From NCBI GenBank assembly GCA_050746205.1, contig JBOGKW010000001.1, forward strand, positions 203 to 64,202: a DNA stretch of 64,000 nucleotides, read 5' to 3'. The position numbers and the translations under genes are program-made. The DNA is from Terriglobales bacterium. GTDB taxonomy: Bacteria > Acidobacteriota > Terriglobia > Terriglobales > SCQP01. Of the stretch, positions 7,446-62,392 are shown in pieces; the first letter of the stretch is position 1; the number at the start of each line of letters is the position of its first letter. The notes under the pieces were generated by a model, which did not search any database, was not told the DNA's origin, and was given only the letters and a program-made list of their open reading frames with translations.

Positions 7446-7469
7446 CGCTGGGGAGGGCGCCGGAGAGGG

Positions 7470-10165: not shown

Positions 10166-10415
10166 CCCAGTTCAGGAGAAAAGGACGTATGGGGCCGCGG
10201 TTGCGTTTCAGCGCGAGGAGTGGGGTGGGTGTGCGTTACGCGGCCCTAAAGCGGCTGACCCGCCCCCGCCCGCCCCGAAGGCGCGAGCCGCCCGCCCCAA
10301 TTGCCCGTGGGTAAGACCGCCGCTTTGCGTGGACTAGGCGTCCCGCCAGCCCGCCGAACGGCCCAGGGTCCGCCCGCGTTGGGGGGTGCCCGTCGAGCCG
10401 GCTGCCGGCTTGAAC

Positions 10416-11828: not shown

Positions 11829-11926
11829 GGCAAAAAGTCCGGAAAGCGTAAATTAGGACGCGTCAGAGAACGATTATAGGTACGTCCCGCTCCGTTCCAG
11901 CGCGGGGCGCAACGGCGGTTCGGCCA

Positions 11927-15907: not shown

Positions 15908-17227
15908 TTATTCGTAGCGCAGGGCTTCGATCGGATCCAGCCGGGCGGCCTTGCTAGCCGGGTAGAAGCCGAAAAAGATGCCGATCGCGGCGGAGAATAC
16001 CACCGCAAGGACGATCGCCGCCCCGGAACTGGCCACCTGCCAGTGGGTCAGCGCCGCCACCAGTGCCGATAGCCCCAGGCCCAGCAAGATGCCCACCACC
16101 CCACCTGCAAGGCTCAGCAGAATCGCCTCGAACAGGAACTGCCGCTGCACGTCCTCCTCGGTGGCCCCTACCGCCATGCGGATGCCGATCTCGTGGGTGC
16201 GCTCGGTCACCGAGACCAGCATGATGTTCATGATCCCGATGCCGCCCACCAGCAGCGAGACCGACGCGATGCTGCCCAGCAGCCAGGTCATGATCTCGCC
16301 GGCGGAGTTGGCGACCTGGGCGATGTCGGCCAGATTGCGCACCATGAAGTCATTTGGCTGGCCGCGCAGAATGCGGTGCCGCTGGTGCAGCAGGGCGGTG
16401 ATCTGCTGCTGCGCCGTGGCGGTCGCGTCTTTGGAGATGGCGGAGGCGACGATATAGTTCAGCCAATCCTCGCCGCTGATCTTCTTTTGCAGCGTGGTAT
16501 AGGGAATAAACACCACGTCGTCTTGGTCCTGGCCCATGCCGGACTGCCCCTTGCCTTGCAGCACGCCGACGACGGTGAAGGGCAGGTTCGGCGAGAGGGC
16601 GGCCGCGCCGTTGCCGGTGGTGGCGGTATTGGTGGCGCTGGTGGCCGCAGCCGAAGTGCCGGGGGTCGCGGTGCCGGTGGTGGCGCCGCCGATCATGATG
16701 GTCTGGCCGACGGGATTGGGCGTGTCGGGAAATAGATTCTGCACCACGGTCTGGCCCAGCACCGCGACGTTTCGCGCCAGGCTCACGTCCTGCGCGGTAA
16801 AGGGGCCGCCGGCGGTGAAGGACCAATTGCGAATTTGGAAATACGCCGGCTCGGTGCCGGTGATGTTGGTGCCCCAGTTATTGCCCCCGGCCACGACCTG
16901 CGCCCGGGTGGTCGCGCCGGCCGCCACCGCTGCCACCGTGGGCACCTGGCGCTCGATCGCCACCTCGTCGGAGTGGACCAGGGTCCTGGTTTGCCCCCAG
17001 CCCATGCGCACCGCCCCGGCCTGATGGCTGCCGGAGGCGATGAACAGCAGGTTGCTGCCCATGGAGGCGATCTGCGACTGCACCTGCTGATTGGCGCCCT
17101 GGCCGACGCCCACCATGGCGATCACCGCGGCCACGCCGATCACGATGCCTAGCATGGTCAGAGCGGAGCGCATCTTGTTGCGCTCCAGCGCCCGCAGCGC
17201 GATTCGCAGAATCGCCAGAAATTCCAT
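15908..17227 (-). CDS. MacB/FtsX-type ABC transporter permease
   Basis: 439 aa with an N-terminal TM segment, a large periplasmic domain and a C-terminal FtsX 3-TM bundle (...GIMNIMLVSVTERTHEIGIRMAVGA...). Confidence 0.9.
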   Translation of the reverse strand: MEFLAILRIALRALERNKMRSALTMLGIVIGVAAVIAMVGVGQGANQQVQSQIASMGSNLLFIASGSHQAGAVRMGWGQTRTLVHSDEVAIERQVPTVAAVAAGATTRAQVVAGGNNWGTNITGTEPAYFQIRNWSFTAGGPFTAQDVSLARNVAVLGQTVVQNLFPDTPNPVGQTIMIGGATTGTATPGTSAAATSATNTATTGNGAAALSPNLPFTVVGVLQGKGQSGMGQDQDDVVFIPYTTLQKKISGEDWLNYIVASAISKDATATAQQQITALLHQRHRILRGQPNDFMVRNLADIAQVANSAGEIMTWLLGSIASVSLLVGGIGIMNIMLVSVTERTHEIGIRMAVGATEEDVQRQFLFEAILLSLAGGVVGILLGLGLSALVAALTHWQVASSGAAIVLAVVFSAAIGIFFGFYPASKAARLDPIEALRYE

Positions 17228-17229
17228 GG

Positions 17230-18036
17230 CTAGACCTCCGTCTCTTCCCCGACCGGCAGTTCCTGCCGCACCACCGCCGCCTCCAGCCGGTCCTCAACCG
17301 GGGCGTCGCGCCGGATGCGGCCGTCCCGGAAGCTGACGACCCGCCGCGCATAGCGCGCGATGTCCGGCTCATGCGTCACCAGCACCAGCGTCAGGCCCTC
17401 GGTTTCGTTCAAATGCTGGAAGATCTCCATGATCTCGACGCTGGTGCGCGTGTCCAAATTGCCCGTGGGCTCGTCGGCCAATAGGATTGCCGGGCGGTTC
17501 ATCAGCGCCCGCGCGATCGCCACCCGCTGCTGCTGGCCGCCGGAAAGCTGGCTGGGATGGTGGCCAGCGCGGTCGCTCAGCCCCACAATCTCCAGCGCCG
17601 CTCGCGCCCGCGCCATCCGCTCCTCGGCGCCCAGCCGGGCATAGAGGGCCGGCAGCTCCACGTTTTCCAAGGCGGTGGTGCGGGCCAGGAGGTTGAAGCC
17701 CTGGAACACAAACCCGATCCGCCGGTTGCGGATGCCGGCCCGCTCCCCCTTGTCCAGCTCCGAGACATCGCGGCCCTCCAGCCAATAGCGGCCGCGCGAG
17801 GGGCGGTCCAGGCAGCCGCAGATGTTCATGAAGGTACTCTTGCCGCCGCCCGAAGGGCCCATGATGGCCACGAACTCGCCGCGTCCGATCTCCAGATCAA
17901 TGCCGCGCAAGGCGTGCACCTGAACCTCGCCCAGGTCGTAGGTCTTGTGCACCCCTTCCATGCGGATCACCGCCTCGGGCGTTGCCGTCGCGCCGGTGGG
18001 GAGCGTGGTTCCGAAGCTGGCCGCGGACGTGCCCAT
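17230..18036 (-). CDS. ABC transporter ATP-binding protein (MacB/LolD type)
   Basis: Walker [10 protein letters not shown], signature [14 protein letters not shown] and Walker B ILLADEPT. It is tightly coupled to the flanking genes. Confidence 0.95.
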
Positions 18037-18038
18037 GG

Positions 18039-19478
18039 TTAGCGGAACCTCCCGCCCGTCATCGGCGACAAGCCCTTGGACTTGACCACCATGCCGGTCA
18101 CCAGCTTGTCGCCCGCCGCCAGCGAACCGCGCAGCACGGTCACCGCGGTGTCGGTGAAGTTGGTGATGCCGGTTTGCACCCGCACCGGGACCAACTGATT
18201 CCCAGGTCCCAGCTTCCAGAGCATGGCGGTGTCGGCGCGCCGCACCGGATCCTGGGCCGCCGCCGCCGCGCCGCCGGCCGCACCGGGCGCCGCCGCCGCG
18301 GTCTGCCGCCGCCGCGGGGCCATGCCATAGCGCTCCAGCAGGGCCTGCAGTTGCGCCGGCGGCAGTTCCGGCTTGAAGCGCAGCGCGGCGGCCGGCACCA
18401 GCAGTTCATTGTGCACGGTGGCCACGGGAATGTTGACGTAGGCTGTCATGCCGGGGAAGACCTGTCCGCCGGGATTGTCGAAGTTGACCATCACGTCGTA
18501 TTCGACGACGTTCTGCACCGTGGTGGCATTCATGCGAACCTGGCTGACCGCGCCGCGGAAAACTTCATTGGGAAAGGCGTCCAACGTGAACGTCGCCGGA
18601 TCGCCCACGTGAATGCGGCCCACGTCGCTTTCATCCGTCTGCACGTCCACCTGCATCTTGCTCAGGTCCTGGGCGATGGTGAACAGGGTCGGCGTTTGGA
18701 ACGACGCCGCCACGGTTTGGCCTACGTCCACCGCCCGGTCTACCACCACGCCGTCTATCGGCGAGTAGATGTTGCAGTAGCCGAGGTTGGTCTCGGCTAC
18801 TTTCAGCGCCGCCACCTGCATCTCCGCCTGCGCCTTGGCCTGCACCAGTTGCGCCTGCGCGGCCACCAGCTTGGCCTGGTCCTGCGCCGCCGCGGCCGCG
18901 GTCACCTGCACCGCCGCCCGGTCGGCGGCCTCGGTGGTCACCGCCTGGTCGCGCTGCTGTTTACTGAAAATGCCTTGCTGATACAGCGGTACCGTCTGGT
19001 CCATGACCAGCTTGGCGTCCTCCCAGGTGGCCTGCGCCTGCTGAATCGACGCCTTGGCGCCGACTAGCGTCTGCTCGGCCACGCCGACGTTGGCCTGCAG
19101 GCTGCGCACGTTCGCCTCGGCCTGGTCGAGGTTCGCTTTGGCCGAAAGCACGTTGTTTTGATACACGGTGGGATCAATCTGGGCGATGAGCTGGCCCTTT
19201 TTGACCGGGGAGTTGAAATCCACCAACAGCTTCTGCACCAGCCCGGAGATCTGGGCCCCCACGTTGACCGTGGTCACGGCCTGCACCGTGCCGCTGGCCT
19301 GCACGGTGGCGGTCAGGTTGCCGCGGGTCACCGCGGCGCTGAAATATTGGGCGGGCGAACTCCGCCGCAAGCCCAGCGTCACTGCCGCGATCGCCACCAG
19401 CAGTGCCAGCACACCGTAGCGTGCCTGCCGGCTGCGGAGGCGATACCAGGGCTGCTTCCGGCTACTCTGCTGTTCCAT
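18039..19478 (-). CDS. MacA/HlyD-family periplasmic adaptor
   Basis: Long coiled-coil adaptor architecture. I prefer the ATG at 19478 (MEQQSSRK...), which is preceded by AGGAGG, over the upstream GTG at 19499. Confidence 0.9.
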
Positions 19479-19588
19479 TCCGGCCTCCTGCGCGTTCACC
19501 TTAAGGAACGCCCGCCGCCGGGCGGCGGTTACAGTGGCGGCGCGGCGGGGGCCGCCGCCCCGCCACCCCCCGCTACAATGGAAGCGCT

Positions 19589-25520: not shown

Positions 25521-26834
25521 GTGCCATTTGCCGCGATAGGCCTCGCCCTGTGTTTCTTTCTCCCCGCCCCTCACACGGCGCCGCAACGCGCCGCGGCGCC
25601 GACCGACACCGCGGCCGCATCCCCGACGTTGGGCTCGTTGCTCGATATTGGCGAGCCAGGCCGCCAACTGCGCGGCCTGGAGCGGTATCTGCACCAGCAT
25701 CCCAATCCGCCGGAGGCAGTGCAGATCTATCAGCAGCTGATCCAGGACGCCACCGCGCTGAATGATTCCCGACGGGTCCTGGCCTATAACGAAGAGCTCC
25801 AGGCGCTGGAGCCCGATGACCTGGGCCAGCGCATCACCGTTCTAAATCAGCTGCTGCTGGAATCCAGCGCCAAGGCCATGGCGCTGGCGGCCCAAGACGC
25901 CCACGAGCTGGCGCTGCTGGTCGCCGTCCAGGCCGCCAGCCCGCCGCCGCAAGAGGCCACCCGCGCGCAATGGAAGGTGGATATGAACCGGCTGCGGGCT
26001 ATCGCGCAGATGTTTCTTGGCGCGGTCGCGCAGAAAACGGGCCATGACGTGGCCGCCGCCACGGATTTCCGCGCCAGCCTAGCGCTAGAGCCCACCGAAG
26101 AAGCGGCCGAACATTTGGGGCAGGTGCTCGAGGCGCGCGGCCAGGCGACGGCGGCGGTGCGGGCCTACGCCCTGGCCCTGGCGCTTCCGGGCCAAACCAT
26201 CGCTGAGCGAAGTACTTTGCGTGGCAGAGCCGGGGCTCTTTACGCCCGCCTGCACCAGGGCAGCCAGCGCGGCTTTGGGGACTTGATTCTGGACCGCTTT
26301 GACCAGATCGCCCAGGCGAATGCGCGGCAACAGCAAGCGCTGCATCCCTATGCGGCGCGCAACCACGAGGCGCAGAGCGTGGGGCAGTTCGTCCTGACCT
26401 CGCTCGACGGGGTCGCGCACCGACTGGCGAGTGAACGGGGCAAGGTCGTAGTGCTGGATTTTTGGGCCACTTGGTGCGGCCCCTGCCAGGCCGAGCATCC
26501 CGCTTATGAAGCCCTGAAGCGACACTACGGCGGCCAGTCCGGCGTGGCGTTCATCTTGATCAACACCGACGACGAGCACGCCAAGGTCGGCCCGTTTCTA
26601 GCCGCGCATCACTGGGCCGACGATACCTGGCTGGATGCCGGGCTCGCCGACTATTTGGGCATAGATTCCTTGCCCACGACGGTCGTGCTGGCGCCCAACG
26701 GCCAGATGGTGTACCGCGAATCCGGCTTCGATGAGGCCAGCTACGCGCGCGACCTGCGGCGGGCGATCCGCTATGCGCGAACGCGGGTCGGCCCAAGCGC
26801 GGCGAAGGCCGGCCGACGAGCGGCCGGGCGCTAG
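25521..26834 (+). CDS. TlpA/ResA-like thiol-disulfide oxidoreductase with an N-terminal helical (TPR-like) region
   Basis: The C-terminal thioredoxin fold carries VVVLDFWATWCGPCQAEHP. Confidence 0.8.
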   Translation: MPFAAIGLALCFFLPAPHTAPQRAAAPTDTAAASPTLGSLLDIGEPGRQLRGLERYLHQHPNPPEAVQIYQQLIQDATALNDSRRVLAYNEELQALEPDDLGQRITVLNQLLLESSAKAMALAAQDAHELALLVAVQAASPPPQEATRAQWKVDMNRLRAIAQMFLGAVAQKTGHDVAAATDFRASLALEPTEEAAEHLGQVLEARGQATAAVRAYALALALPGQTIAERSTLRGRAGALYARLHQGSQRGFGDLILDRFDQIAQANARQQQALHPYAARNHEAQSVGQFVLTSLDGVAHRLASERGKVVVLDFWATWCGPCQAEHPAYEALKRHYGGQSGVAFILINTDDEHAKVGPFLAAHHWADDTWLDAGLADYLGIDSLPTTVVLAPNGQMVYRESGFDEASYARDLRRAIRYARTRVGPSAAKAGRRAAGR

Positions 26835-36689: not shown

Positions 36690-37364
36690 GCAAGGAAATG
36701 GGGAGCCGGGGGCCGAGATCGTCAACTCCCGTGAGGCCAACTGGCGTCTACGTCCGCGGCGGGGGCCGCATCGAGTCCCGTTCCATCGAAACCATCGGGC
36801 TGACCAAGCTGGGCTTCCGTCGCGGTCCGGACATGGCGCAGGCAGCAGGCGCAGACCCTGGCCCGGCTGATCGGGCCGGACGGGGCGGCGCCCGCGCCGT
36901 TCGGCGGCAACGGCAGGCCGGCAACAATTGTCGTAACCCGAGCGCCGCCGGGCACGTTAGATAGTCCATGCGTGGGGCGCAACGCCGGGCGGCGGTCTAT
37001 CCGAGGGGATTTCCGGGACCCGCCTGGGTGTGGTATTTGGGGTTGGGGCTGGCGTTGGCGGCGGGCATGGTACTGCCACTGCACGCCCGCCGCCATCGCC
37101 TGCACCGCGCCCAGTTGGTTTCCGTGGCGCCGCATCCGGTGACCGCCTGGCTCGGGCCCACGGTGCGAGCGATTTCCCTGCCGCCGTTCGCCGTCCGGGC
37201 CCGGCGGGGTGCGGGCCAATCCCGCGTGCGCATCCGCCCACCCACCGCATAGCCCACAGGCAGGAATGCCTTGCCGATCGCCGGGCACCCATGCGTGGGT
37301 ACTGCCCCGGCGTCACACCTCAAGACCCACCGGCGACAGCCGGGCCCAAGTTGAGGAGAGCTTC

Positions 37365-38777
37365 ATGGGAACGTTTTGGCGCCTCCGGATCGCCGGCGGC
37401 AGCATCATCATCTGCCTGCTGGCCGTATGGGCCATGGCCGCCGTGCCGCCACCGGCGGCGAGCGGCGGCAATTTAACCCTGGCGCAGGCGGTGCGGCGAG
37501 CGCTGGCGTATTACCCGACCGCCTTGGCGGCGGCGCGCAACGCGGCGGCGGCGCAGGCGCAGGTGGGGGTCGCCAAGACCAGCTATCTGCCGGTGATGGG
37601 GCTGACGGCGCAATTCGACCGGGCCACGGATAATGCGGTGCTGGGCCTGTCGTTCCCCAGCCCATTGCCCTCGATCAGCGGCACCGTTCCCCCCAAGGAC
37701 TACTTTGGCGATTCCGCCTGGAGCAGCGCCGCGGGGTTGTATTTCAACTGGGAGTTCTTCGACTTTGGCCGCCGCGCCGCCAATGTGCATTTTTACCGGG
37801 ACCTGGCGGCGCAGGCGTCCGAGCAGGAACAATACGTGCGGCTGCAAGTGGCGGCGCATGCGGCGGATGCGTTCCTGAACGTGCTGGCGGCGCAGGCGCA
37901 GCAGAGCGTGGCCATGGCCGATGTGGGCCGCTGGCGCACGGTGGACCAGATCGTACGGGTGCTGGTGGGGCAACAACTGCGGCCGGGGGCCGATGCCTCG
38001 CGGGCAGACGCGGAGCTGGCCGGGGCGCGCATCCAGCTGGCCGGGGCGGAGCAGACGGTGCTGCGGGCCGACGCGGCACTGCGGGAGGCGGTGGGGGGCG
38101 CGGCGCTGCCGCAGTTGGACAGCGGGCTTTTGGCGGCGGCGCCGGAGGCGGCCCCACCCAGCGGGCCGGCGGCGCCGCAACACCCGGAAGCCTTGGCCCA
38201 GCAGCAGGCCGTCGCAGCCAGCCAGCAGCAGGGCAAAGAGCTGGCGGTCGCCGACCGGCCGCGCTTTTACATGCTGGGCGCGGCGTTTGGGCGGGGCACC
38301 GGAGTGCTGGCGCCGGGGCAATTGGCCGGCGGCCTGAACGGCCTGTCGCCCACCGGCGCGGGCAACTGGGCGGTGGGCGGGGCGGTGGATTTTTCCTTTA
38401 CCCGGCTGGCGCAGGTGCGGCAACAGCGGGCGGTGCAGCGCCAGCAGTTGGCCGCCGCCCAGGACCGCTACACGCTGGTGCTGGCGCAACTAGACGAGGT
38501 GCGGCGGCAGGCGGCGGCGGACTTGGCCGCGGCACGGCAGGTGGCCCAGGAGTCGCCCATCGAGCTGCAAGCCGCCCAGACCGGCGAGGCGCAGGCGCGG
38601 GCCCGCTATCAGGCCGGGTTGTCCGACATTGTGGATTTGGCGAACGCCGAGCAACTGCTGGCACGGGCGCAGAGCGATGACGCGCTGAGCCGGCTGCAGG
38701 TGTGGCGGGGCTGGCTGGAGACGGGTTACGCCAAGGGCGATCTGCAACCTTTTTTGCGCGCCGTCGGAGGCTATTAA
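37365..38777 (+). CDS. TolC-family outer membrane efflux protein
   Basis: The ATG at 37365 is preceded by GAGGAGAG. It has a signal peptide (MGTFWRLRIAGGSIIICLLAVWAMA) and the TolC repeat pattern. Its stop codon abuts the RND gene start (TAAATG). Confidence 0.85.
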   Translation: MGTFWRLRIAGGSIIICLLAVWAMAAVPPPAASGGNLTLAQAVRRALAYYPTALAAARNAAAAQAQVGVAKTSYLPVMGLTAQFDRATDNAVLGLSFPSPLPSISGTVPPKDYFGDSAWSSAAGLYFNWEFFDFGRRAANVHFYRDLAAQASEQEQYVRLQVAAHAADAFLNVLAAQAQQSVAMADVGRWRTVDQIVRVLVGQQLRPGADASRADAELAGARIQLAGAEQTVLRADAALREAVGGAALPQLDSGLLAAAPEAAPPSGPAAPQHPEALAQQQAVAASQQQGKELAVADRPRFYMLGAAFGRGTGVLAPGQLAGGLNGLSPTGAGNWAVGGAVDFSFTRLAQVRQQRAVQRQQLAAAQDRYTLVLAQLDEVRRQAAADLAAARQVAQESPIELQAAQTGEAQARARYQAGLSDIVDLANAEQLLARAQSDDALSRLQVWRGWLETGYAKGDLQPFLRAVGGY

Positions 38778-41700
38778 ATGAGGATGATCGCGGCTGCGCT
38801 ACGGCGGCCTTTCACGGTGTTGGTGCTGGCGGTGGTCGTGGTGGGGGCGGCGGTGCTGGCCGTCTCCCGCATGTCCATTGACGTCTTTCCCACCCTGGAC
38901 ATGCCGGTGCTCTATGTTGCCCAGCCCTACGGCGGCATGGCGCCGGCGGAGATGGAAGGCTACATCGTCAACTACTACGAGACCAATTTCCTCTACATCT
39001 CCGGCGTGGATCACATGGAGTCCCGTTCGATTCAGAACATGGGGCTCATCAAGCTGACTTTTCATCCCGGCACGGACATGGATCAGGCCGTGGCGGAGAC
39101 GGCGGCTTATGTGCAGCGCTCGCTAGCCTACATGCCGAAGGGCATTGTGCCGCCCTTCATCATGCGCTTCGACGCCGGCAGCGTGCCGGTGGGCGATTTG
39201 GTGCTCTCCAGCCGCACCGAATCCCAGGGCCAGTTGGACGACTTGGCCCAGATACGGATCCGGCCGATGTTCGCCGGCCTGGCCGGGGTGTCGGCGCCGC
39301 CGCCGTTTGGCGGCAATCCGCGCAGCATCATTGTCAGCATCAATCCCGACCGGTTGGCGGCGCAGGGGCTCTCGCTGGACGACGTGGTACAGGCCATCGC
39401 CAATGGCAACGCGGTGCTGCCCAGCGGCAATGCGCGCATCGGCAAGTGGAACCGCATCGTGCGCGTCAACACCGTGGTGCCCGCCTACCAGGACTTGACG
39501 GATTTGCCCCTGCGCAGCCGCTACGGCCCGATGATCCGGCTGGGGGACATCGCCACCATCGCCGACGCCGCCGACGTGGTCAGCGGCTACGCCGAATTGA
39601 ACGGGCGGCGGGTGGTTTACATCCCGGTCACCAAGCACGCCGACGCCTCCACGCTGCGGGTGGTCAGCGAGGTCAAGGCGGAGTTGCCGGAGATGCGGCA
39701 GCAACTGCCGCGCGACGTCCAGGTGCACTTCGCCTTTGACCAGTCGGTGTACGTGCGCAACGCCCTGCAGGTGCTGCTGACCGAGGGGCTGCTGGGCGCG
39801 CTGCTCACGGGCCTGGTGGTTTGGTTGTTTTTGCGCGATGCCCGGAGTTCGCTGATCGTGGTGACGGTCATTCCCTTCGCCTTGCTGGCGGCAGTGGCGG
39901 GGTTATGGGCCTTTGGCCAAAGCCTGAACATCATGACTCTGGGCGGGCTGGCGCTGGCTATCGGCATTTTGGTGGATGAGGCTACGGTGGCGGTGGAAAA
40001 CATTCACACCCACCTGGCCCGCGGGGCCAAGCCGGCGCGGGCGGCGCTGGCGGCGACGCGGGAGATCTTCTTGCCGCAGTTGCTGGCCATGCTGTGCGTG
40101 GCGGCGGTGTTTTTGCCGGCGTTCTTCATGACCGGCATCAGCCGTTCGCTCTTTATTCCCCTGGCGCTGGCCGTGGGGCTGGCGATGGGGGCGTCGTTCG
40201 TGCTGTCCAACACGCTGGTGCCGCTGCTGTCGGTGCTGCTGCTGCGGCATCACCATGGGCCCGCAGTGGCGCCGGAAGGGGTGGTGCCGGGGCGGCGCCC
40301 CTCGCCGCTGGAGCGGCTGCGGCAGGGCGTTCTGCGCTGGACGGCGCGGCTGGCGCCGCGGGCAAAGTGGGCGGTGGCGGTTTATCTGGTGGGTTGCCTG
40401 GCGCTGATCGCCACCTTCGTCCGCGCCGACGGCACCGATCTGTTCCCGCAGGCCAACACCGGCGAGTTCCAGGTGCGGCTGCGGGCGCCAACGGGCACGC
40501 GGCTGAAGCTGACGGAGCAGTTGTACAACCAGGCGCTGGGGCTGGTTGAGCGGGAGGCGGGGCCGGGGAATGTGGAGACGAGCCTGGGCTTCGTCGGGAC
40601 GCAGCCACGGTCGTACCCCATCAACACGATTTATTTGTGGACCAGTGGGCCGGAGGAGGCGGTGATGCAGGTGGCGCTGCGGCGCGGCTCCGGCATCAAG
40701 CTTTTGCCCTTCGAGGACCACCTGCGGCAGGCGTTCGCGCGCGAGATGCCGGACGTGACGATCTCATTCGAGGCGGGCGACATCATCGGCAAGATCATGA
40801 ATCTGGGGGCGCCGGCGCCGATCGCGGTGAACGTGACGGGGTTCCATTTGCAGCAGGACCAGGCCTACGCCCGCCAGGTGCGGGCAGCGCTGCGGCGCAT
40901 TCCGGCGCTGCGGGACGTGCAGTTTGAGCAGTCGGGCGCCTATCCGGCAGTGCTGATCAACGTGGACCGGGAGCGGGCGGCGGAGTTGGGCCTTTCGTTG
41001 GCGGCGATCGGCCGATCGCTGACCGAGGCCACCGCCTCCAGCCGCTTCGTGGCCCGGGACTTTTGGCAGAACCCGGCCACCGGCGTGACCTATCAGGTGC
41101 AGGCGCTGTATCCGCCGAGCGAGGTCAACAGCCTGGACGCGCTGCGCACCATGTCCTTGAAGACCGCGCCGGCGCGGGCGGTGGGGGCGGACGGGAATGG
41201 GGCGACGCGGGCGGTGGAACTGGGCGATGTGGCCCGGCTGGACTTCGGAACCGTCGAGGAGGAATACGACCACTACAACATGCAGCGGGTGATGACCGTG
41301 ACCGCCAACGTGCAGACGGGCAGCTTGGGCGATGCCGCCCAGGCGGTGCGGGCGGCGCTGGCGGAGTTGCCGCCGCCGCCGCGCGGGGTGCGAGTGGCGC
41401 TGCTGGGGCAGGTGCAGCCGATGGAGCAGACGCTGGCCGGCCTGCGCGGCGGGTTGCTGCTGGCGGTGGCGGTCATCCTGCTGCTGATGACGGCCAGCTT
41501 CCAGAGCTGGCGGCTGGCCTTGGCGGTGGTCTCGGCCGTGCCGGCGCTGCTGGTGGGGGTGCTGGTGTCGCTGTATTTGTTTGGCTCGACACTGAACATC
41601 GAGTCCTTCATGGGGGCGATCATGACCATCGGCATCGCCGTGGCCAACGGGATTTTGCTGATCACGATGGCGGAGCAGGCGCGGCGGCGGCGGCAAGCCG

Positions 41701-42065
41701 AATGGCGGGCCGAGGCGGCGCGGGACGGAGCCGCGCCGGCGGAGAGCCAGGAGGCCGGCCGGCGCGCGCGTGCGGCGCTGGCGGCGGCGGGGGAGGGGGC
41801 GGGCGTGCGGTTGCGGCCCATCTTGATGACCGCCGCGGCGATGATCGCAGGCATGATCCCGATGGCGCTATCGCTGGAGGCGGGCGGCGAGCAGTCGGCC
41901 CCGCTCGGGCAGGCGGTCATCGGCGGGCTGGCGGCGGCCACGCTGGCCACGCTGCTGATCATGCCGGCGGTGTTCCTCCTGCTGCAACGAAAGCAATCGG
42001 ACGCGACGCCCTCGTTGGATCCGGAGGATCCCGAGAGCCGGGAGTTCGAGGAGGCGGAGGCATGA
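38778..42065 (+). CDS. AcrB/AcrD/AcrF-family RND efflux permease
   Basis: 1095 aa with a typical RND N-terminus (...RPFTVLVLAVVVVGAAVLAVSRMSIDVFPTLDMPVLYV...) and twelve-TM layout. Confidence 0.95.
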   Translation: MRMIAAALRRPFTVLVLAVVVVGAAVLAVSRMSIDVFPTLDMPVLYVAQPYGGMAPAEMEGYIVNYYETNFLYISGVDHMESRSIQNMGLIKLTFHPGTDMDQAVAETAAYVQRSLAYMPKGIVPPFIMRFDAGSVPVGDLVLSSRTESQGQLDDLAQIRIRPMFAGLAGVSAPPPFGGNPRSIIVSINPDRLAAQGLSLDDVVQAIANGNAVLPSGNARIGKWNRIVRVNTVVPAYQDLTDLPLRSRYGPMIRLGDIATIADAADVVSGYAELNGRRVVYIPVTKHADASTLRVVSEVKAELPEMRQQLPRDVQVHFAFDQSVYVRNALQVLLTEGLLGALLTGLVVWLFLRDARSSLIVVTVIPFALLAAVAGLWAFGQSLNIMTLGGLALAIGILVDEATVAVENIHTHLARGAKPARAALAATREIFLPQLLAMLCVAAVFLPAFFMTGISRSLFIPLALAVGLAMGASFVLSNTLVPLLSVLLLRHHHGPAVAPEGVVPGRRPSPLERLRQGVLRWTARLAPRAKWAVAVYLVGCLALIATFVRADGTDLFPQANTGEFQVRLRAPTGTRLKLTEQLYNQALGLVEREAGPGNVETSLGFVGTQPRSYPINTIYLWTSGPEEAVMQVALRRGSGIKLLPFEDHLRQAFAREMPDVTISFEAGDIIGKIMNLGAPAPIAVNVTGFHLQQDQAYARQVRAALRRIPALRDVQFEQSGAYPAVLINVDRERAAELGLSLAAIGRSLTEATASSRFVARDFWQNPATGVTYQVQALYPPSEVNSLDALRTMSLKTAPARAVGADGNGATRAVELGDVARLDFGTVEEEYDHYNMQRVMTVTANVQTGSLGDAAQAVRAALAELPPPPRGVRVALLGQVQPMEQTLAGLRGGLLLAVAVILLLMTASFQSWRLALAVVSAVPALLVGVLVSLYLFGSTLNIESFMGAIMTIGIAVANGILLITMAEQARRRRQAEWRAEAARDGAAPAESQEAGRRARAALAAAGEGAGVRLRPILMTAAAMIAGMIPMALSLEAGGEQSAPLGQAVIGGLAAATLATLLIMPAVFLLLQRKQSDATPSLDPEDPESREFEEAEA

Positions 42066-42126
42066 GCGGGCAGGCGAGGACGCCATGCATCGGATGGCGG
42101 CGGGGCGGACGGAAAGGATCTCGGCA

Positions 42127-43320
42127 ATGGGCATGAGAACGCGAAATCGGCGGTGGAGTGGGGCGGGGCTGGCGGCAGGGCTGATGTTGGCGCTGGCGGC
42201 GCTGGCCGGCGGCTTGGGCGGATGCAGCGCGCACGGCGGCCACACAGTGCGAGCGGCGGAAGCCAGCCTGCCGCCGCTGGTGGCTACGGCGCCCGTGCGG
42301 CGGGAGCGGCCGCGGCTGAGCACCGACCTGCCAGCGGAGTTGGACCCGTATCAGGATGTGGTCCTGCGGGCGCGCGTGCCCGGGTTTGTGGCCCGTCTCT
42401 ACGCCGACCGCGGTACGCGGGTGCGGGCTGGACAACTGCTGGCGACGATTGAGGCGCCGGATCTGGTGGCCAAGGTGGGCCAAGCGGAGCAGCAGTTGAG
42501 CGCGGCGCGGGCGCAGCGGGCCGAGGCGCAGGCGGCGCTGGCCCGGGACCAGGCGACGCTGCAGCGGCTGAGCGGCGCGGCGCAGGCCATGCCCGGAGCG
42601 GTGGCCGGCAACGACATCACGGTGGCGCAGCAGACGGTGAAGATGGACGCGGCGCAGTCGCAGTCCCGCGCCGCGGCCGAGGCGGCGGCGCAAAAAGCCC
42701 TACAGTCGGTGACGGCGCTGGAGCAATACCTCCAGGTGCGGGCGCCGTTCTCCGGCATGGTGGTGACGCGCATGATCTCCGCGGGGGCGCTGGTGGGACC
42801 GGGAGGCGTGCCGATGTTCGAGGTCCAGCAGTTGGATCCCCTGCGGCTGACCGTGGATGTGCCGGAGGCCGAGGTGGGGGGCGCGGCGATCGGCGACCGC
42901 GTCGCCTTCACCGTCACTAGCGCACCGGGGCGCACGTTCACCGCGGTGGTGGCGCGCATCGCCCACAGCCTGTTGCCGCAGACCCGCACCATGCCGGTCG
43001 AGGCCGACGCCGCCAACCCGCAGTTGGTATTGGCGCCGGGGATGTTCGCCCGGGTGCTCTGGCCGGTGCAGCGGCGGCAGCCGACGTTGTATGTGCCGAC
43101 GACGGCGGTTCTGGACACCACGTTGGGCCAGAGCGTCGAGGTGGTACGCAACGGGAAAATCGCCATGGTGCCGGTGACAACGGGCTTCACCGACGGCGCG
43201 CAGATGGAGGTCTTCGGGCCACTGCAGCCGGGCGATCCGGTGGTCACGCCGGGGGACAAGACGCTGGCTGCGGGGTCGGCGGTGCGGGTCGCCGCCAGCG
43301 GCGCTGGCACCGGGTCGTAG
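42127..43320 (+). CDS. Efflux RND periplasmic adaptor subunit (lipoprotein)
   Basis: Lipobox LAGGLGGC and an adaptor hairpin (...EAPDLVAKVGQAEQQLSAARAQRAEAQAALARDQATLQRL...). The start is ambiguous (42085, 42094, 42127 or 42133). Confidence 0.85.
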   Translation: MGMRTRNRRWSGAGLAAGLMLALAALAGGLGGCSAHGGHTVRAAEASLPPLVATAPVRRERPRLSTDLPAELDPYQDVVLRARVPGFVARLYADRGTRVRAGQLLATIEAPDLVAKVGQAEQQLSAARAQRAEAQAALARDQATLQRLSGAAQAMPGAVAGNDITVAQQTVKMDAAQSQSRAAAEAAAQKALQSVTALEQYLQVRAPFSGMVVTRMISAGALVGPGGVPMFEVQQLDPLRLTVDVPEAEVGGAAIGDRVAFTVTSAPGRTFTAVVARIAHSLLPQTRTMPVEADAANPQLVLAPGMFARVLWPVQRRQPTLYVPTTAVLDTTLGQSVEVVRNGKIAMVPVTTGFTDGAQMEVFGPLQPGDPVVTPGDKTLAAGSAVRVAASGAGTGS

Positions 43321-43509: not shown

Positions 43510-43756
43510 GCGGCCCGATTGCGCCGGGCCGCGCGCCTCGTTCGCCGCCTCCGCTAGGGGGTTTTCGACCGTGTCATCAGGCCTTTCGCGGCGGCGGGTG
43601 AGTGAGAATCGCCGCCTCTCATGAGCGAGAGTTTGCGCCTCTTTTGCCGGGAATGCCCGAGCCGAAACGGGCCAGAGAACGAGTAACTTCCGAACAACGC
43701 TGCGTTGAGCCGCGCGCCGTTCGCGGCGCGGGCGCTGCCATTCGGAAGGACTCCGC

Positions 43757-45211
43757 TTGCATTCTCGTTCTCTCTTTTTGCGCCCCTTGGGGGGCGTCGC
43801 GCTGGGCCTGCTGTGTTTCACCTTTGGATGCGGGGGCGGCGTTGGCGCCGCGGCCAAGACGCGGCCGAGTTCCGGGGTCAGCCTCAGCCTTAGCCCCGCC
43901 ACGGTCACGTTGCAACCGGGCGAAAGCAAGTCCTTTACCGCCCAGGTCAGCGGGAGCCAGAACACCGCGCTGGATTGGACCGCAACGGGCGGCACGGTCA
44001 GCGGCAGCGGCACGGCGGGCACCTATACGGCGGGCTCGAACGCTGGCGCCTACGCGGTGATGGTGGCGCTGCCCAGTGGCGCTGGCGGAGCCACCGTTAG
44101 TGCGAAGGCCAGCATCACCATCCAGGCGGCGACGGCGGCGACGGTGACCGTCTCCCCCGCCAGCGCCACGCTGACGCCAGGGCAGACGCAGCAATTCAGC
44201 GCCACGGTCAGTGGCGGCGGCGACAGCACAGTCAGCTGGACCGCGACCGGCGGCAGCATCAGCTCCGCGGGCCTGTTCACGGCCGGCAACAGCGCCGGCA
44301 GCTACACCGTGACGGCCGCCAGCACGGCGGATGGCAGCGCAAAGGGAATGGCGGCGGTGACCATCACGGCGGCGTCCTCCGGCTCCGGTGGCGGCGCTGG
44401 CAGCGGGCAGTTGTTCACCAGTCCGAGTGCTGCTTGGCTGTACAATCCGCCCACCGGCAGCGGCACGGATATCAGCAGCACCACCAGCCAGCTGGGCTTT
44501 TCGCTGAATACCGCGTCCGGCGGTTTCAGCTATCCGGTGCAGTACACCGACGGATCGCACGGGTGCACCACGTTCACCGACACGCTGGAGTACAACTACA
44601 GTGACAAGATCTGCGTGCCCAACCCGGCCAGCGGCTATGACCCCACCACTGGCGGCTGGGGTGCGAACGACGGCCATTTGATCGTGGTGAACACGGCCAA
44701 CCGGACGTACTACGACTTCTGGAAGCTGTACACCGACGGCAACGGGCACCCCACCAGCACCAACGTGGGCAAGATCGCCTCCGGCGACCTGAACACCAGC
44801 AACGGCACGCCCGGCACGACAGCAGCGAACATCACCGGGCTGGCGGGGGACATCCTGCCGGGGGAGCTCGACTGCGCCGACTGCATTCATCACGCGCTGA
44901 ACGTGATCGTGCCGGCCTCGATGGACAGCAATCAATTGGGGCATCAGGGCCCGGTCACGGTGGGCGACGGCCAGGTCAGCGGCGCCATTTTCCGCGAGGG
45001 GGCGAAGATCCGCCTCGACCCCAGCGTTGACGTCAACTCTCTGCCCGTGAGCACGGCGGTGAAGGCCATCATGACCGCGCTGCAGAAATACGGTGGCCTG
45101 ATCACCGACCAGACCGGCGCGAGTGCCATCTGCGTTTACTCGGCGCTGGATTCCCAGCCGGACATGACCGGGCAGAACCTGATCGTGCAGCACCTGCTGA
45201 TCTACTACTAG
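43757..45211 (+). CDS. Lipoprotein with two or three Big_2-like Ig domains and a ~300-aa C-terminal domain of unknown function
   Basis: The TTG start is preceded by GGAAGGA. It has the lipobox LLCFTFGCGG and repeated units (VSLSPATVTLQPGESKSFTAQVSGSQNTALDWTATGGTVS / VTVSPASATLTPGQTQQFSATVSGGGDSTVSWTATGGSIS). I did not recognise the C-terminal domain. Confidence 0.75.
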   Translation: MHSRSLFLRPLGGVALGLLCFTFGCGGGVGAAAKTRPSSGVSLSLSPATVTLQPGESKSFTAQVSGSQNTALDWTATGGTVSGSGTAGTYTAGSNAGAYAVMVALPSGAGGATVSAKASITIQAATAATVTVSPASATLTPGQTQQFSATVSGGGDSTVSWTATGGSISSAGLFTAGNSAGSYTVTAASTADGSAKGMAAVTITAASSGSGGGAGSGQLFTSPSAAWLYNPPTGSGTDISSTTSQLGFSLNTASGGFSYPVQYTDGSHGCTTFTDTLEYNYSDKICVPNPASGYDPTTGGWGANDGHLIVVNTANRTYYDFWKLYTDGNGHPTSTNVGKIASGDLNTSNGTPGTTAANITGLAGDILPGELDCADCIHHALNVIVPASMDSNQLGHQGPVTVGDGQVSGAIFREGAKIRLDPSVDVNSLPVSTAVKAIMTALQKYGGLITDQTGASAICVYSALDSQPDMTGQNLIVQHLLIYY

Positions 45212-49541: not shown

Positions 49542-52532
49542 CTACTTGACCACCAGCGTCAGCGGCAGCGAGTGCACCAGCGCGCCGGCGGTGGCGGTAA
49601 TGGTGAGCGTGGTGGTTCCGGGCGGGGTGCTGGGCAGCGCCGGGGGATCGGCGGGGCGGCCGCCGCAAGCTGCTAGGGCCAAGGCCAGCGCCGCCAGCGC
49701 CAGCGCCCCGCCAAGGCGAGTGGCCCAGCGGCGCCGGCGGCTGATGGCGGCCAAGCCCAGCGAGAGCAGGCACGCGCACAACAGCCAAAGCAGGGACCGG
49801 GGCGGCTCACCCGATGGCCCCGGCGGCAGCGCGGCAGTGAGCCCAGGCGGGGTGGTCATGACCGAGACGGTGGTGGTTTGGCTGGCGCCGTTGAGGGTGA
49901 CCGTGGGCGGGGAGATGACGCAGGTGGCGGCTTTGGGGGCACCGCCGCAGCTGAGCCCGATGCTGCCGGTCCAGCCGTTGCTCGGAGCCAAATTGAGGGC
50001 ATAACTGGCGGTTTGGCCCGGGCTGACGCTGGCCGTCGGGCTGGCGGCGGCAAGGGAGAAGTCCGCGATGGCGATGGTGAGCGCGAGGGAATGGCTGTCG
50101 CCGCCGCTGCCGGCGAGGACGGTGATGGGCGCCTGACTGGCAGAAATCTGCGCGATGCCGCTGACGGTGAGCGTGGTATCGCCGCCGGCGCTGACCGAGG
50201 CGGGAGCGAAACCGCAGGCGAGCGGTGGCGCGGCCTGACAAGTAAAATTGATGGTCCCGCTGAAGCCGGCGATGCCGGCAGTGGCCAACTGGAACTGCGA
50301 CGCATTCGCGCCGCGGGTGACGGTCGTTTGGGGATGGGCCGCAAGGACGGAGAAATCCCAGGCGGTGGCGGTGAGGGTGGCCGAAGCGGTGGCGCCGTCG
50401 CTGGCGCTGCCGGTCACCGTGGCGGCGGTGACGGTTCCCGCCGGCAGGCTCGAGAGCGTGGCGGTGGCGGTCTGTCCCGGGGTGACGCTGGCGGGGCTCA
50501 GTTGGCAATTGGCCCCGCCGGGCGGCTGGCAGCTCAAGCTAATCAGACCGCTGAACCCGCCTTGCGCCGCCGCCGCGAGCGGAAACGCCGCGGATTGGCC
50601 GGCCATGACCGAGAGCGAGCCGGGCGTTGCCGCCAGGGTGAACCCCTGCGCGGTGATGGTCACGGTCGCGGTTTGGGTCACCGGGCCCTGCTGCGCGGCG
50701 ATGACGATGGTGTTGGCGCCGGCGGCCAGCGCCGCAGCGGCCACGGTGAGCGTAGCCGCGCCGCCGGGCGAGACCGAGGCCGGGGCGAACGAGCAGCCGG
50801 CGGCGGGAGCGCTGCAGGACAAGGCGATGGGGCCGGCCACACCGGTGGTGGCGACCTGGATGGTCGCGGGTTGGCCGAGGGCAACATCGCTATTCTGAGC
50901 GGAGGCGGTGACGGTGAACTGGCCGGGCAACAGGCCGTAGATGTCTAATTCTCCGCCGGCGGGCACGAACACTTCCCCGTCGGCGATGGCGGGAGCCACG
51001 AACTTCACCGCCGGCCCGGCCTGATCGCGGGCGCTATCCTGAGTGCTGTTATAGAGTTCCTGCAGGCTGCCGGCATCATAGGCGTGCAGCACCTCCGGTC
51101 CGCCGCTGGCCCAGGCTTGGGCTTCAATGAGCCACACGATGCCGTCGCTATTGCCGTTGGCGGAGATCATCGGCACGCCAGCGGGAAAGTCGAACCAGGT
51201 GCTGGAGGTGGCGACGGGGGCGGCGCTCAACAGATCGTCGTTGACGGCAAAGGCCTGCAGCGGACCGCCGAGACCACTGTCGCCACCGGTGCCGACCTGA
51301 TACCATTCGCCGTTCCAATAGGCGGGCGTGCCGAAGACTCCGGCGCTGGCGCCGGCTTCCTCTTCCGGGATCTGGGTGTCCGGCCCGGGGCCCTCAACGT
51401 AGCCGCCGAGGTCATTGGGGTTAAGGACATAGAGATCGCCCGCTTTGTTGCCGGCGACCGCCACGCCGGCGGGCTGGCTGGAGGAGGGGGGCAACAGGAC
51501 CACGCCTTGGGAAGAAAGGTCGGCGTTGGTGGCGGAGAGTTGGTTGACATCCCAGGGCGCGAAGTAATCGCTGGCAACGAGTTGGCCGTCGCTGTTCGCC
51601 AGCCGGATGATGCTTTCGCCCAGGTCACCGGTGCTGGGAGAGAAGCCGAGATTGCCGCTGGCGACATAGACATTGCCGCTGGCGTCGGCGGCCGGCGCGC
51701 CGCCCCACAGGCCGCCGCCTTCGCCGTTGGGCGTGGCGACATAGGTGGCCGCCGGCTGCAAGGTGGCGGCGTTGAAGGCCATCAGCCAGCCGTGATACGG
51801 CTGATAGTCGCAGTGCGAGCCCCAGGCCACGTAGACCAAGCCTTGGGAAAGGAGCAGGCCGGGGCGCTGCAGTGCGGTCAGGGGATTGAAGCTCAGTTGG
51901 CCATTGGCGGAGCCCACACCGGTGCCGGGGACGGTGGCGGAGATGACCGCCGGGCCGCCGAACTTCTCCGCGCCCGTGGCCACGGCCAGAGCGTGCAGGC
52001 GCTGCACGGGCTGGCCGTTCTCCATGGTCGCGGCGACCACGTAGAGGGTGCCGGTGGAGGTGTCAATGACCGGCGTGCCGGTGATGCCGATCAGCGGCTG
52101 GAGGTCTTGGCAATGGGCTTCGTTGGAGGTCTGGGTCAAAATGCCCTGGCTGGGGTCGGTGAAATGGTCCACCCACACAGGCGTGGCCCCTTGGCCGTTG
52201 CTGGCCCCTTGCGCGTCGAAGGCGTAGACGCTGTCGTTTTCCGTGACCACGAAGACCAAGTTGCGGGTTTGCCCGGCGGGCAACGTCACATTGGGCAGAT
52301 AGAGCGGCTGGGCATAGATGTCCGCATCCACCGGCGCGCGGAGCAACAGGCCAAACTGCTGGCTGTTGACATTGGCCGGCGTCAGCTGCGTTTCCGCGGT
52401 GTTGGCGCCGGTGCGGGCGTTGTTGTTGTGGTAGGTCCAGACGGTGGTCTGCGCCGACAGGGCAAGGGCGAGGAGCAGGACCGCCGGCAGGCTGCGGAGG
52501 ACGGCGGTGAGAGCACGGCAACACAAGCGCAT
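49542..52532 (-). CDS. Large surface protein: PQQ-like beta-propeller plus four Ig-like repeats, the last one interrupted by a TM hairpin
   Basis: The ATG at 52532 gives the signal peptide MRLCCRALTAVLRSLPAVLLLALALSAQ. Next come a propeller region (TVWTYHNNNARTGAN...VFVVTENDSVYAFDA...) and four ~95-aa repeats that start F(T/S)(V/L)xA. The C-terminal segment has two hydrophobic helices. Confidence 0.8.
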   Translation of the reverse strand: MRLCCRALTAVLRSLPAVLLLALALSAQTTVWTYHNNNARTGANTAETQLTPANVNSQQFGLLLRAPVDADIYAQPLYLPNVTLPAGQTRNLVFVVTENDSVYAFDAQGASNGQGATPVWVDHFTDPSQGILTQTSNEAHCQDLQPLIGITGTPVIDTSTGTLYVVAATMENGQPVQRLHALAVATGAEKFGGPAVISATVPGTGVGSANGQLSFNPLTALQRPGLLLSQGLVYVAWGSHCDYQPYHGWLMAFNAATLQPAATYVATPNGEGGGLWGGAPAADASGNVYVASGNLGFSPSTGDLGESIIRLANSDGQLVASDYFAPWDVNQLSATNADLSSQGVVLLPPSSSQPAGVAVAGNKAGDLYVLNPNDLGGYVEGPGPDTQIPEEEAGASAGVFGTPAYWNGEWYQVGTGGDSGLGGPLQAFAVNDDLLSAAPVATSSTWFDFPAGVPMISANGNSDGIVWLIEAQAWASGGPEVLHAYDAGSLQELYNSTQDSARDQAGPAVKFVAPAIADGEVFVPAGGELDIYGLLPGQFTVTASAQNSDVALGQPATIQVATTGVAGPIALSCSAPAAGCSFAPASVSPGGAATLTVAAAALAAGANTIVIAAQQGPVTQTATVTITAQGFTLAATPGSLSVMAGQSAAFPLAAAAQGGFSGLISLSCQPPGGANCQLSPASVTPGQTATATLSSLPAGTVTAATVTGSASDGATASATLTATAWDFSVLAAHPQTTVTRGANASQFQLATAGIAGFSGTINFTCQAAPPLACGFAPASVSAGGDTTLTVSGIAQISASQAPITVLAGSGGDSHSLALTIAIADFSLAAASPTASVSPGQTASYALNLAPSNGWTGSIGLSCGGAPKAATCVISPPTVTLNGASQTTTVSVMTTPPGLTAALPPGPSGEPPRSLLWLLCACLLSLGLAAISRRRRWATRLGGALALAALALALAACGGRPADPPALPSTPPGTTTLTITATAGALVHSLPLTLVVK

Positions 52533-52883
52533 GGTTTTGCGCGGGCGGGTCCCGCAACTCTGCGATGGCGGATCGGGACCGCACCGTTGCCCAGGGGCGC
52601 GGAACCCAGGCGGCCCACGCCCAATGCGGGCCACGATCGCAGCCCTGGCGGCAGACGTGCCCGGGCTAGTCGCGGCAACCTGGAGGGGTCCCGAGCACCA
52701 GCCGGCGTCGGTTGTCGGCTGTCCCACCTCCACATGCGCCGCTGCATGCCGGGGACCGCTTCGAAGCCCAGCCGCAGGCCCGGCTGGCGCCGGGGTCCCC
52801 AGCGGGAACGGTGCGTGCTTGTGTGGAGCGGTGCGGCGTGGGGTGGGGCGACGGGGCCGTCTAGGATCGGGCGGCTGAGCCGC

Positions 52884-54675: not shown

Positions 54676-55797
54676 CTAGGGCATGGCCTGCGCTAGCGCC
54701 ACGCCAGCGGCGGCCGGCCCCTGCCCACGGACGGAAAAGATGACGCCGTCGCGCACCCAGCTCAGGGCGTAACTGCGCGGCCAGCGGCCGCGGGGGGCAA
54801 AGCGGACCAGGATGCCCTGGACGCCGTCCACAGGGATTTGGGTGTAGGTGGATTGCGCCTCCGGAATGGGTAGCACCAGGGTGGAGCGCCAGTTGACGGT
54901 GCGGCAGAAGGCCGCCGCCTCATCCGCGCTCATGCCCGCGGCTTGCAAGCCGATCTGGGCCAGCGTTTCCAGGTTGAGGCTGGGCGGCACGCTGATGATG
55001 GGCGAGGGCAACTCGCGCAGCAGCGTGCAGCCGGCCACCGCCCGGGGTTGGGCGCCGCAGGTGCCGTAGGCGGCGCGGACCGAGGCGGGGATATTCACCG
55101 CCACCAGGGCGCCGGTGTCGGCGGGCGGAATTTGCAGGTCGGGCCGGCCGGCGGCGGCCAGGACGGAGTCCAGGCGCTGGGCGTCGAGCGTCATCTGGAA
55201 GGCCTGTTGGCCGAGGACGGCGATCTGCGCGGGCGCTGGGACGCCGAGCGGCAGGCGCACGGCGAAGCCCGCCCATTGGCTGGCCTCGGCACCGGAGGCG
55301 GCCAGCCGCGGCGGGACGGCGGGGATGGTCACCGTTACCCGCTGCGCGATCATTTGCCGCAGCAGCACGCCGACCTGACGCTCGCTGGCGGGGGAGAGCT
55401 CGGGCGGGTTAACGGCGACCACGGTGACCTGATGAATGCGCAGCACGGAGAGGACATTCGCCGCCCAGCTGCGCGCCTGCGGAAGGATGGCCAGGGCGAG
55501 CAAAATGACCACCGCCGCCGCCGGCGCCCACAGCCAGTCCCGCCGCGGCGGAGGTGGCACGGGACGATGGACCCGCGCCAGCACCGCGGCCAGCGTGGCG
55601 GTGGCGTCGCCGTCACCGAACGCCGCCGGACCTGGCGCCGCCAGCGCCAGGGCCACCCTGGCGTTCGCCGCCAGGCGTTCGCACCGCTGTTGGCAACGGA
55701 GGCAGGCCTGCCGATGTTGACGCATGGCCTCCGCCTGGGCGGCGTCCACCGTTCCATCCAGTTCCGCTCTCCATTCACCGTCGCTAGGACAACGCAT
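54676..55797 (-). CDS. Anti-sigma factor (zf-HC2) with a large extracytoplasmic domain
   Basis: N-terminal HxxxCxxC motif (HRQACLRCQ) and a single TM segment (LWAPAAAVVILLALAIL). It overlaps the upstream ECF sigma gene by 14 nt. Confidence 0.7.
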   Translation of the reverse strand: MRCPSDGEWRAELDGTVDAAQAEAMRQHRQACLRCQQRCERLAANARVALALAAPGPAAFGDGDATATLAAVLARVHRPVPPPPRRDWLWAPAAAVVILLALAILPQARSWAANVLSVLRIHQVTVVAVNPPELSPASERQVGVLLRQMIAQRVTVTIPAVPPRLAASGAEASQWAGFAVRLPLGVPAPAQIAVLGQQAFQMTLDAQRLDSVLAAAGRPDLQIPPADTGALVAVNIPASVRAAYGTCGAQPRAVAGCTLLRELPSPIISVPPSLNLETLAQIGLQAAGMSADEAAAFCRTVNWRSTLVLPIPEAQSTYTQIPVDGVQGILVRFAPRGRWPRSYALSWVRDGVIFSVRGQGPAAAGVALAQAMP

Positions 55798-61849: not shown

Positions 61850-62308
61850 TCAGGCGCCAATCGCCGCCAGCACCTCTTCCGCATGCCCCTCCGGCTTGAC
61901 CCGGTCGAAGATTCGCTCGATGTTCCCGTTCGCGCCGATCAAGAAGGTCGTCCGCCGCACCGCCATGAACCTCCGTCCGAACATGCTCTTCTCCTTCAGC
62001 ACGCCGTAGGCCGCCGCCAACTGCCGATCCTCGTCGGCCAGCAGCGGAAACGGAATCTTCTCCTTCTCCTGAAATTTCTTCTCTTCTTGCGGTGGATCTG
62101 GGCTGGCGCCCAGCACCACCACCCCGGCGGCTTGAAAGCGGGCATATGCGTCGCGGAACCCGCGCGCCTCGACGATTCACCCAGGTGTATTGGCGCGGGG
62201 GAAAAAGTACAGCACGACGCGCCGCCCCGCGTGTTCGACCAGCGTCACCACCTGGCCATCTTGATTCCGGACGCGAAAGTCCGGCGCCTTGGCTCCAATC
62301 TCAGGCAT
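61850..62308 (-). CDS. bcp: Thiol peroxidase Bcp/PrxQ with in-frame UGA (predicted selenocysteine) at the peroxidatic position
   Basis: The frame of track ORF 61850..62122 continues upstream through a single TGA (62179-62177) to the ATG at 62308. It reads MPEIGAKAPDFRVRNQDGQVVTLVEHAGRRVVLYFFPRANTPG-TGA-IVEARGFRDAYARFQAAGVVVLGASPD..., 152 codons. It is collinear with E. coli Bcp ([23 protein letters not shown]), and the TGA falls on the Cys of TPGC. Confidence 0.8.
62148..62167 (-). promoter_or_regulatory. Candidate bacterial SECIS hairpin
   Basis: The mRNA reads UGA AUCGUCGAG GCGCGCGG-GUU-CCGCG(A)CGC. This is an 8-bp G/C stem with a bulged A and an apical loop containing GU. The stem starts 9 nt after the UGA and the loop starts 17 nt after it. 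Confidence 0.5.
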
Positions 62309-62392
62309 GCCCAGAGTGTACCAATGCGGCCCGTCTACCCCGTGTCCCGCAGGCATCGCCGCGATTGTCCAGGCGGGAAGCCCTGGGCGGCC

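Follow-up and report, generated by a model that had tools for sequence, protein, structure and literature searches.

In a 64-kb stretch of DNA from a Terriglobales MAG (hereafter the window), we identified a locus that is very probably one intact gene for a peroxiredoxin of the Bcp/PrxQ type, in which an in-frame UGA at codon 44 would be read as selenocysteine (Sec). An earlier note on this DNA had already proposed a selenoprotein here. We found that its reading is supported by the occurrence of TGA as the only stop at this codon among relatives, by selection on both halves of the gene, by a hairpin specific to the TGA forms and by the adjacency of selB to the gene in some relatives. Annotation should treat the locus as a single selenoprotein rather than label it truncated or a pseudogene. 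The Bcp-type Sec peroxiredoxin is a kind already known, of which this gene is a further member. The value of the finding lies in the correction of the annotation, in a measure of how widespread the Sec form is among Terriglobales, and in a natural series of Sec and Cys forms.

Gene structure and family assignment

The features of the locus are listed below, in the order in which they are transcribed.

61850..62308, minus strand: complete bcp/prxQ selenoprotein gene (predicted), 152 codons plus stop, from the sequence, its translation, the open reading frames and profile matches
62308-62306, minus strand: start codon ATG of bcp/prxQ
62180..62308, minus strand: codons 1-43, upstream of the UGA, carrying Pro37 and Thr41 of the PxxxTxxU motif; compared by dN/dS
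62177..62179, minus strand: UGA codon 44, predicted selenocysteine, at the peroxidatic Cys position; from the codon alignment of 167 loci
61853..62176, minus strand: codons 45-152, downstream of the UGA, 108 sense codons, holding the conserved catalytic Arg119
62148..62167, minus strand: SECIS-like hairpin, nt 13-32 counted from the U of the UGA (10-29 nt downstream), with 8 bp, a bulged A at 62151 and a GUU loop at 62159-62157
61852-61850, minus strand: terminator TGA of bcp/prxQ

The minus-strand frame of bcp/prxQ contains one internal stop only, the TGA at 62179-62177. In the mechanical ORF list, the locus appears as two pieces, 61850..62122 (90 aa, with a GTG start) and 62177..62356 (59 aa). 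The sequence, its translation and the ORF list confirmed the extent of the gene given in the earlier note, together with the single in-frame TGA and the 43 codons upstream of it.

The joined 152-residue product, with Cys substituted at the TGA, was scanned against profiles. The Pfam AhpC-TSA profile (PF00578) matches at 127.9 bits against a cut-off of 26 (E 2.8e-37), with profile positions 1-123 of 124 falling on residues 4-132. NCBIfam NF006960, the thioredoxin-dependent thiol peroxidase Bcp, matches residues 4-150 (profile positions 6-152 of 156) at 150.6 bits, above its curated cut-off of 140. The product also aligns from one end to the other with chains of known Bcp structure (5enu, and 3gkk/5iiz, the BCP of Xanthomonas campestris; E 2.6e-33). 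Both profiles and the solved chains thus agree with the end-to-end collinearity with Bcp that had been claimed before.

Alignment to homologues and to the solved Bcp structures gave the active-site motif P37-R-A-N-T41-P-G-U44, where the TGA stands for the Cys of PxxxTxxC, as the earlier reading had it. The window protein shares the catalytic Pro, Thr and Arg with the Cys-type Bcp/PrxQ proteins (NF006960; 5enu, 3gkk/5iiz), and Arg119 is invariant in alignment A1. It differs from them in having UGA (Sec) for the peroxidatic Cys and Arg for the resolving Cys, which is present in 59 of 60 Cys-form relatives. There is no Cys anywhere in the window protein. The resolving-Cys site, position 49 (+5), is Arg, and the CxxxxC pattern of the atypical 2-Cys Bcp subgroup is therefore absent. 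The one-Sec type of enzyme proposed in the earlier note stands in so far as the resolving Cys is missing; the residue replacing it is Arg49 and not the Ala that had been placed there, since that Ala (Ala48) lies at +4.

Conservation of the UGA codon and of the coding sequence around it

We collected 167 related loci for codon comparison at the active site. The aligned codon was TGA in 107 of them, TGC in 55 and TGT in 5, and TAA or TAG in none. Recording this codon in relatives, and looking there for additional disruptions as signs of decay, had been put forward earlier as checks on the selenoprotein reading: homologues switch solely between TGA and Cys codons, and no other stops or frameshifts were seen. 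The TGA form is present in 56 of the best-matching 80 GTDB species representatives (Terriglobales). The upstream 43 codons and the start Met are kept in frame in every TGA locus examined. The recurrence of the same TGA at the same codon in 107/167 loci is more than chance.

The nearest relatives (L004 and L168-171) have 81-84% amino-acid identity to the window protein, and all carry the TGA. They also have a neighbourhood in common with the window, consisting of GreA, CDP-alcohol phosphatidyltransferase, SHOCT, bcp, (Uma2) and gltX. Against these relatives, dS is about 0.8-1.1, with synonymous sites nearly saturated, and dN/dS is 0.14-0.24 over the 43 codons upstream of the TGA and 0.11-0.13 downstream. 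Such low ratios at near-saturated dS indicate that both halves are translated and under selection in the window's lineage. The coding sequence on both sides of the TGA is under purifying selection.

A Cys-type bcp inactivated by a nonsense mutation would account for the 59-aa and 90-aa pieces into which gene callers split the locus, and for the lack of Sec machinery visible within the window. We nevertheless consider a pseudogene highly improbable, because the same TGA codon occurs in 107 loci from many species without any other stop or frameshift, because the dN/dS of 0.11-0.24 holds on both sides of it, and because the hairpin is co-conserved with the TGA. An error of sequencing or assembly, with TGA standing in place of a true TGC or TGT, requires the change of one base only. 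This explanation is scarcely credible, since the whole locus including the TGA is identical in NCBI assembly GCA_973421355.1 and in a Logan assembly of another SRR run, and since over 100 independent contigs show the TGA again.

The GTG codon 19 codons past the TGA could serve as the start of a second polypeptide, and a 43-aa and a ~90-aa chain might then assemble into a peroxiredoxin-like protein. The chance of such a split gene is vanishingly small: the internal start is not conserved, fragment lengths in relatives varying between 89 and 113 aa, the stretch of 18 codons that separates the TGA and the GTG is conserved as coding, and the assembled protein would be without a peroxidatic residue.

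The UGA might also be read as a standard amino acid without selenium, through an altered code that gives Trp or Gly or through near-cognate suppression that gives Cys or Trp. One database entry follows such a reading: the full-length orthologue P0004 (L003:252-707) was translated by JGI with W at the active site, where the DNA reads TGA. We judge this alternative improbable, though less remote than those above. TGA terminates 10 of the 38 called genes of the window, including bcp/prxQ itself, indicating that the genetic code is standard and that the codon is not reassigned. Trp or Gly cannot serve as the peroxidatic residue, and homologues alternate between TGA and Cys codons only. Furthermore, the TGA-specific hairpin and the selB gene adjacent to bcp in relatives point to SelB-dependent decoding.

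The window was scanned for coding regions broken by a single TGA, and the scan returned bcp/prxQ, a toxin-antitoxin junction and two weak artefacts. The junction (TGA at 3911-3913) belongs to a pair with the look of a VapBC-type system, a small ORF followed by a PIN-domain ORF, at 3683-4345 on the plus strand.

The hairpin downstream of the UGA and the predicted decoding of selenocysteine

A local fold of the 28 nt at 62171-62144 gave a single dominant hairpin of -12.9 kcal/mol, which makes up 90% of the ensemble. Its stem spans the codon of Arg49, the old resolving-Cys position. When the hairpin is laid on 85 distinct TGA-form sequences, pairing holds in 89% of cells, compared with 21-65% for registers in which the 3' partners are slid. 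We also compared the TGA forms with the Cys forms. The mean minimum free energy (MFE) of nt 10-39 is -10.8 kcal/mol in TGA forms and -4.9 in Cys forms (Mann-Whitney p 3e-20), and the z-scores relative to synonymous recodings that preserve the peptide are -1.38 and -0.02, respectively. In the best of three registers, all TGA forms have 6-8 of the 8 pairs, whereas Cys forms have 4-7.

The two classes differ at individual positions as well. The pair 20-24 is G-C in 76 TGA forms (75 in a second count), A-U in 6 and G-U in 4, but canonical in only 47% of Cys forms. In L172, from the window's own clade, a compensatory double change from G-C to A-U (GGG to GAG and UUC to UUU) keeps this pair. Codon +6 is Gly GGG or Glu GAG in 82/86 TGA forms, so that G21 stays in the hairpin loop. 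For Ala+4, the TGA forms use GCG or GCU and the Cys forms use GCC. Most TGA forms have A as the third base of codon +10 (all five of the commonest codons, at least 72/86), where Cys forms mostly have C or U. As judged from these alignments, the synonymous-site differences between the TGA and Cys classes are explained only by the predicted RNA structure.

Bacterial SECIS elements lie directly 3' of the UGA and their apical loop holds a G that is conserved (PMC1794560). A conserved stem-loop just 3' of the UGA with a G in its apical loop is what we found among the Sec forms. The hairpin resembles the SECIS of the E. coli fdhF type in its place directly 3' of the UGA and in an apical loop with a G followed by a U, here G21 and U22. 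The corresponding loop positions in E. coli fdhF are G23 and U24. Unlike the fdhF element, it has a shorter stem, a 3-nt loop and a single bulge on the 3' side, and SelB binding to it is predicted.

Several other searches for structure returned little. The 76-nt fold around the UGA showed no signal above shuffles (z +0.95, in GC-rich sequence). The MFE structure of that stretch is a rival long-range fold; the hairpin was recovered only by the local fold and the comparative analysis. RNAalifold kept 3 pairs only, since the register of the outer stem varies among the sequences, with two or three in use. Rfam had no family matching the hairpin, whether its gathering thresholds or a limit of E 10 were applied. 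Among the six closest sequences, synonymous variation falls over codons +1 to +11, but not significantly (p 0.10).

Two other loci showed variations of the same hairpin. In L005 (2995-3048), a more distant TGA-form lineage (59% identity, with neighbours GatB and MutS2), the FRD motif is FRG, and the GGG codon of FRG pairs with the GCC of Ala+4 to form a perfect 7-bp stem. On the predicted fold, this change of residue appears to be in the service of the RNA structure. The other, L098 (1943-1996), is a Cys form (TGC) and the most similar metagenome match (64% identity), with Arg at the resolving position. It still folds into the hairpin, at -15.4 kcal/mol. The locus has the look of a Sec form that recently reverted to Cys and kept a remnant SECIS, a pattern described in PMC1794560 that the hairpin of L098 fits. 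The database proteins P0001 and P0002 (TPGC..EAR) resemble this Cys form. Sec and Cys forms stand side by side in close relatives and offer a good natural series, L098 among its members, for the study of Sec/Cys exchange and of SECIS evolution within coding sequence.

Within the 64-kb window, no selA, selB or selD turned up among the 30 ORFs scanned with Pfam, and ARAGORN found no tRNA gene there, and hence no tRNA-Sec. ARAGORN reported no tRNA in any of 175 fetched loci either (1.28 Mb including the window), which is below a rough density expectation, the loci being homologous neighbourhoods and not independent samples. A tblastn search with the SelB of Solibacter usitatus (query from the supplement of PMC1794560) gave matches in two of the fetched loci. 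In L162, selB is a 634-aa ORF (10202-12106, minus strand) that scores 391 bits with TIGR00475 against a cut-off of 242; it is convergent to a TGA-form bcp and ends 12 nt from the bcp end. The selB of L055 (4313-5239) has the same arrangement beside a TGA-form bcp. Neither selA nor tRNA-Sec was found near these two selB genes in the 20 kb examined. The adjacency of selB indicates that some genomes with the TGA form encode the Sec-specific elongation factor. A database search with the SelA of Solibacter showed SelA to be widespread in Acidobacteriota, the matches listed being mainly Bryobacteraceae-like and not linked to this genome. The Terriglobales genome to which the window belongs would be expected to encode selA, selB, selC and selD.

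Following the E. coli model, the hairpin 10-29 nt 3' of the UGA, with its GUU loop, would bind the SelB-GTP-Sec-tRNA(Sec) complex during translation. This complex would then deliver Sec to the UGA at codon 44 in competition with release factor 2. In the resulting enzyme, the selenolate of U44, activated by Thr41 and Arg119, would reduce a hydroperoxide and be converted to the selenenic acid. With a protein that has no Cys and carries Arg49 at the resolving site, an external reductase would have to recycle the enzyme. A thiol reductase from outside the protein, for instance thioredoxin, would act on the selenenic acid directly, and the mechanism would be of the 1-Sec kind. Both the incorporation of Se at codon 44 and the identity of the reductant are predictions of this model.

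The resolving residue at +5 is R in 74, C in 21 and S in 12 of the 107 TGA forms. The resolving Cys is thus lost in 86/107 Sec forms, compared with 1/60 Cys forms. At codon +5, replacing UGC by CGC gives the stem its C16-G28 pair in place of a U-G wobble, and the Ser variant (UCC) is always accompanied by CGU at Arg+8 and by a register shift that leaves a U bulged. Selection on RNA structure, and not enzymology alone, may at least partly have driven this loss of the resolving Cys, although we regard this as a doubtful suggestion. If true, the signal for recoding would have changed the mode of catalysis from 2-Cys to 1-Sec.

Related selenoproteins, annotation and further features of the window

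Zhang et al. 2006 (PMC1794560) described a 'Prx' selenoprotein family with a T/SxxU site and 12 members, all taken as Cys-to-Sec changes, and recorded 4 selenoproteins in Acidobacteria. The window protein has such a site in T41-P-G-U44. Supplementary file 4 of that paper includes two members of the Bcp type, Anaeromyxobacter_dehalogenans_1 (TSGU, with Ser at +5) and Geobacter_metallireducens (TPGU, with Asn at +5), with which the window protein shares 46% (without gaps) and 38% identity, respectively. All three have the fold, the length and the T(P/S)GU site with Sec in common, and all have lost the resolving Cys at +5. The window protein differs in phylum (Acidobacteriota, Terriglobales, vs Deltaproteobacteria), in the Arg at +5 and in having no Cys.

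The earlier note had named PrxU of Eubacterium acidaminophilum as a precedent. PrxU is likewise a Sec-containing member of the peroxiredoxin superfamily, and to this extent the comparison holds, but it belongs to another subfamily; the close precedents are the Bcp-type proteins of Anaeromyxobacter and Geobacter. We rejected an assignment of the window protein to PrxU, as it scores 46.1 bits with NF040737 against a cut-off of 270. Our search of the literature on Sec-PrxQ/Bcp and on the selenoproteomes of Terriglobia found nothing more specific, and no description of the high frequency of the Sec form in this clade (107 of the 167 nearest loci).

A search with the part downstream of the TGA returned many database 'proteins' of 89-113 aa that are fragments of the same type. 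The earlier expectation that standard annotation would call the locus truncated is realised in public collections, which hold these fragments. Among P0121-P0227, dozens of entries of 89-113 aa, some of which bear the name peroxiredoxin, are pieces from the C-terminal part of Sec-type Bcp. The mis-annotation of Sec-type Bcp in public databases is systematic: the gene, common in soil Acidobacteria, is routinely entered there as two fragments. In the assembly itself, two protein accessions fall between GltX MGH9533273.1 and MGH9533276.1, a gap that would fit bcp/prxQ being annotated as a protein. The selenoprotein reading would imply Sec decoding and the use of Sec in peroxide defence in this Terriglobales lineage and in many soil Acidobacteriota, and estimates of selenium use in soils would be affected.

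We also noted features of the window apart from this gene. The 38 heuristically called genes end in TAG in 21 cases, in TGA in 10 and in TAA in 7, and TAG as the commonest stop seems unusual at 68% G+C. The bcp genes of all close relatives end in TAG, and that of the window ends in TGA. Three long ORFs on the minus strand had no Pfam match at E 1e-5, located at 49542-52733 (1063 aa), 43619-45193 (524 aa) and 54676-55797 (373 aa). The first two of these failed the codon-position filter and may not be genes. Three efflux systems are found within 40 kb, at 4359-10165 (AcrB-HlyD-OEP), 15908-19499 (MacB-ABC-HlyD) and 37209-43320 (OEP-AcrB-HlyD). A second thiol-oxidoreductase gene is present at 25521-26834 on the plus strand, where the C-terminal domain of a 437-aa ORF is Redoxin/AhpC-TSA/thioredoxin-like (TlpA-like).
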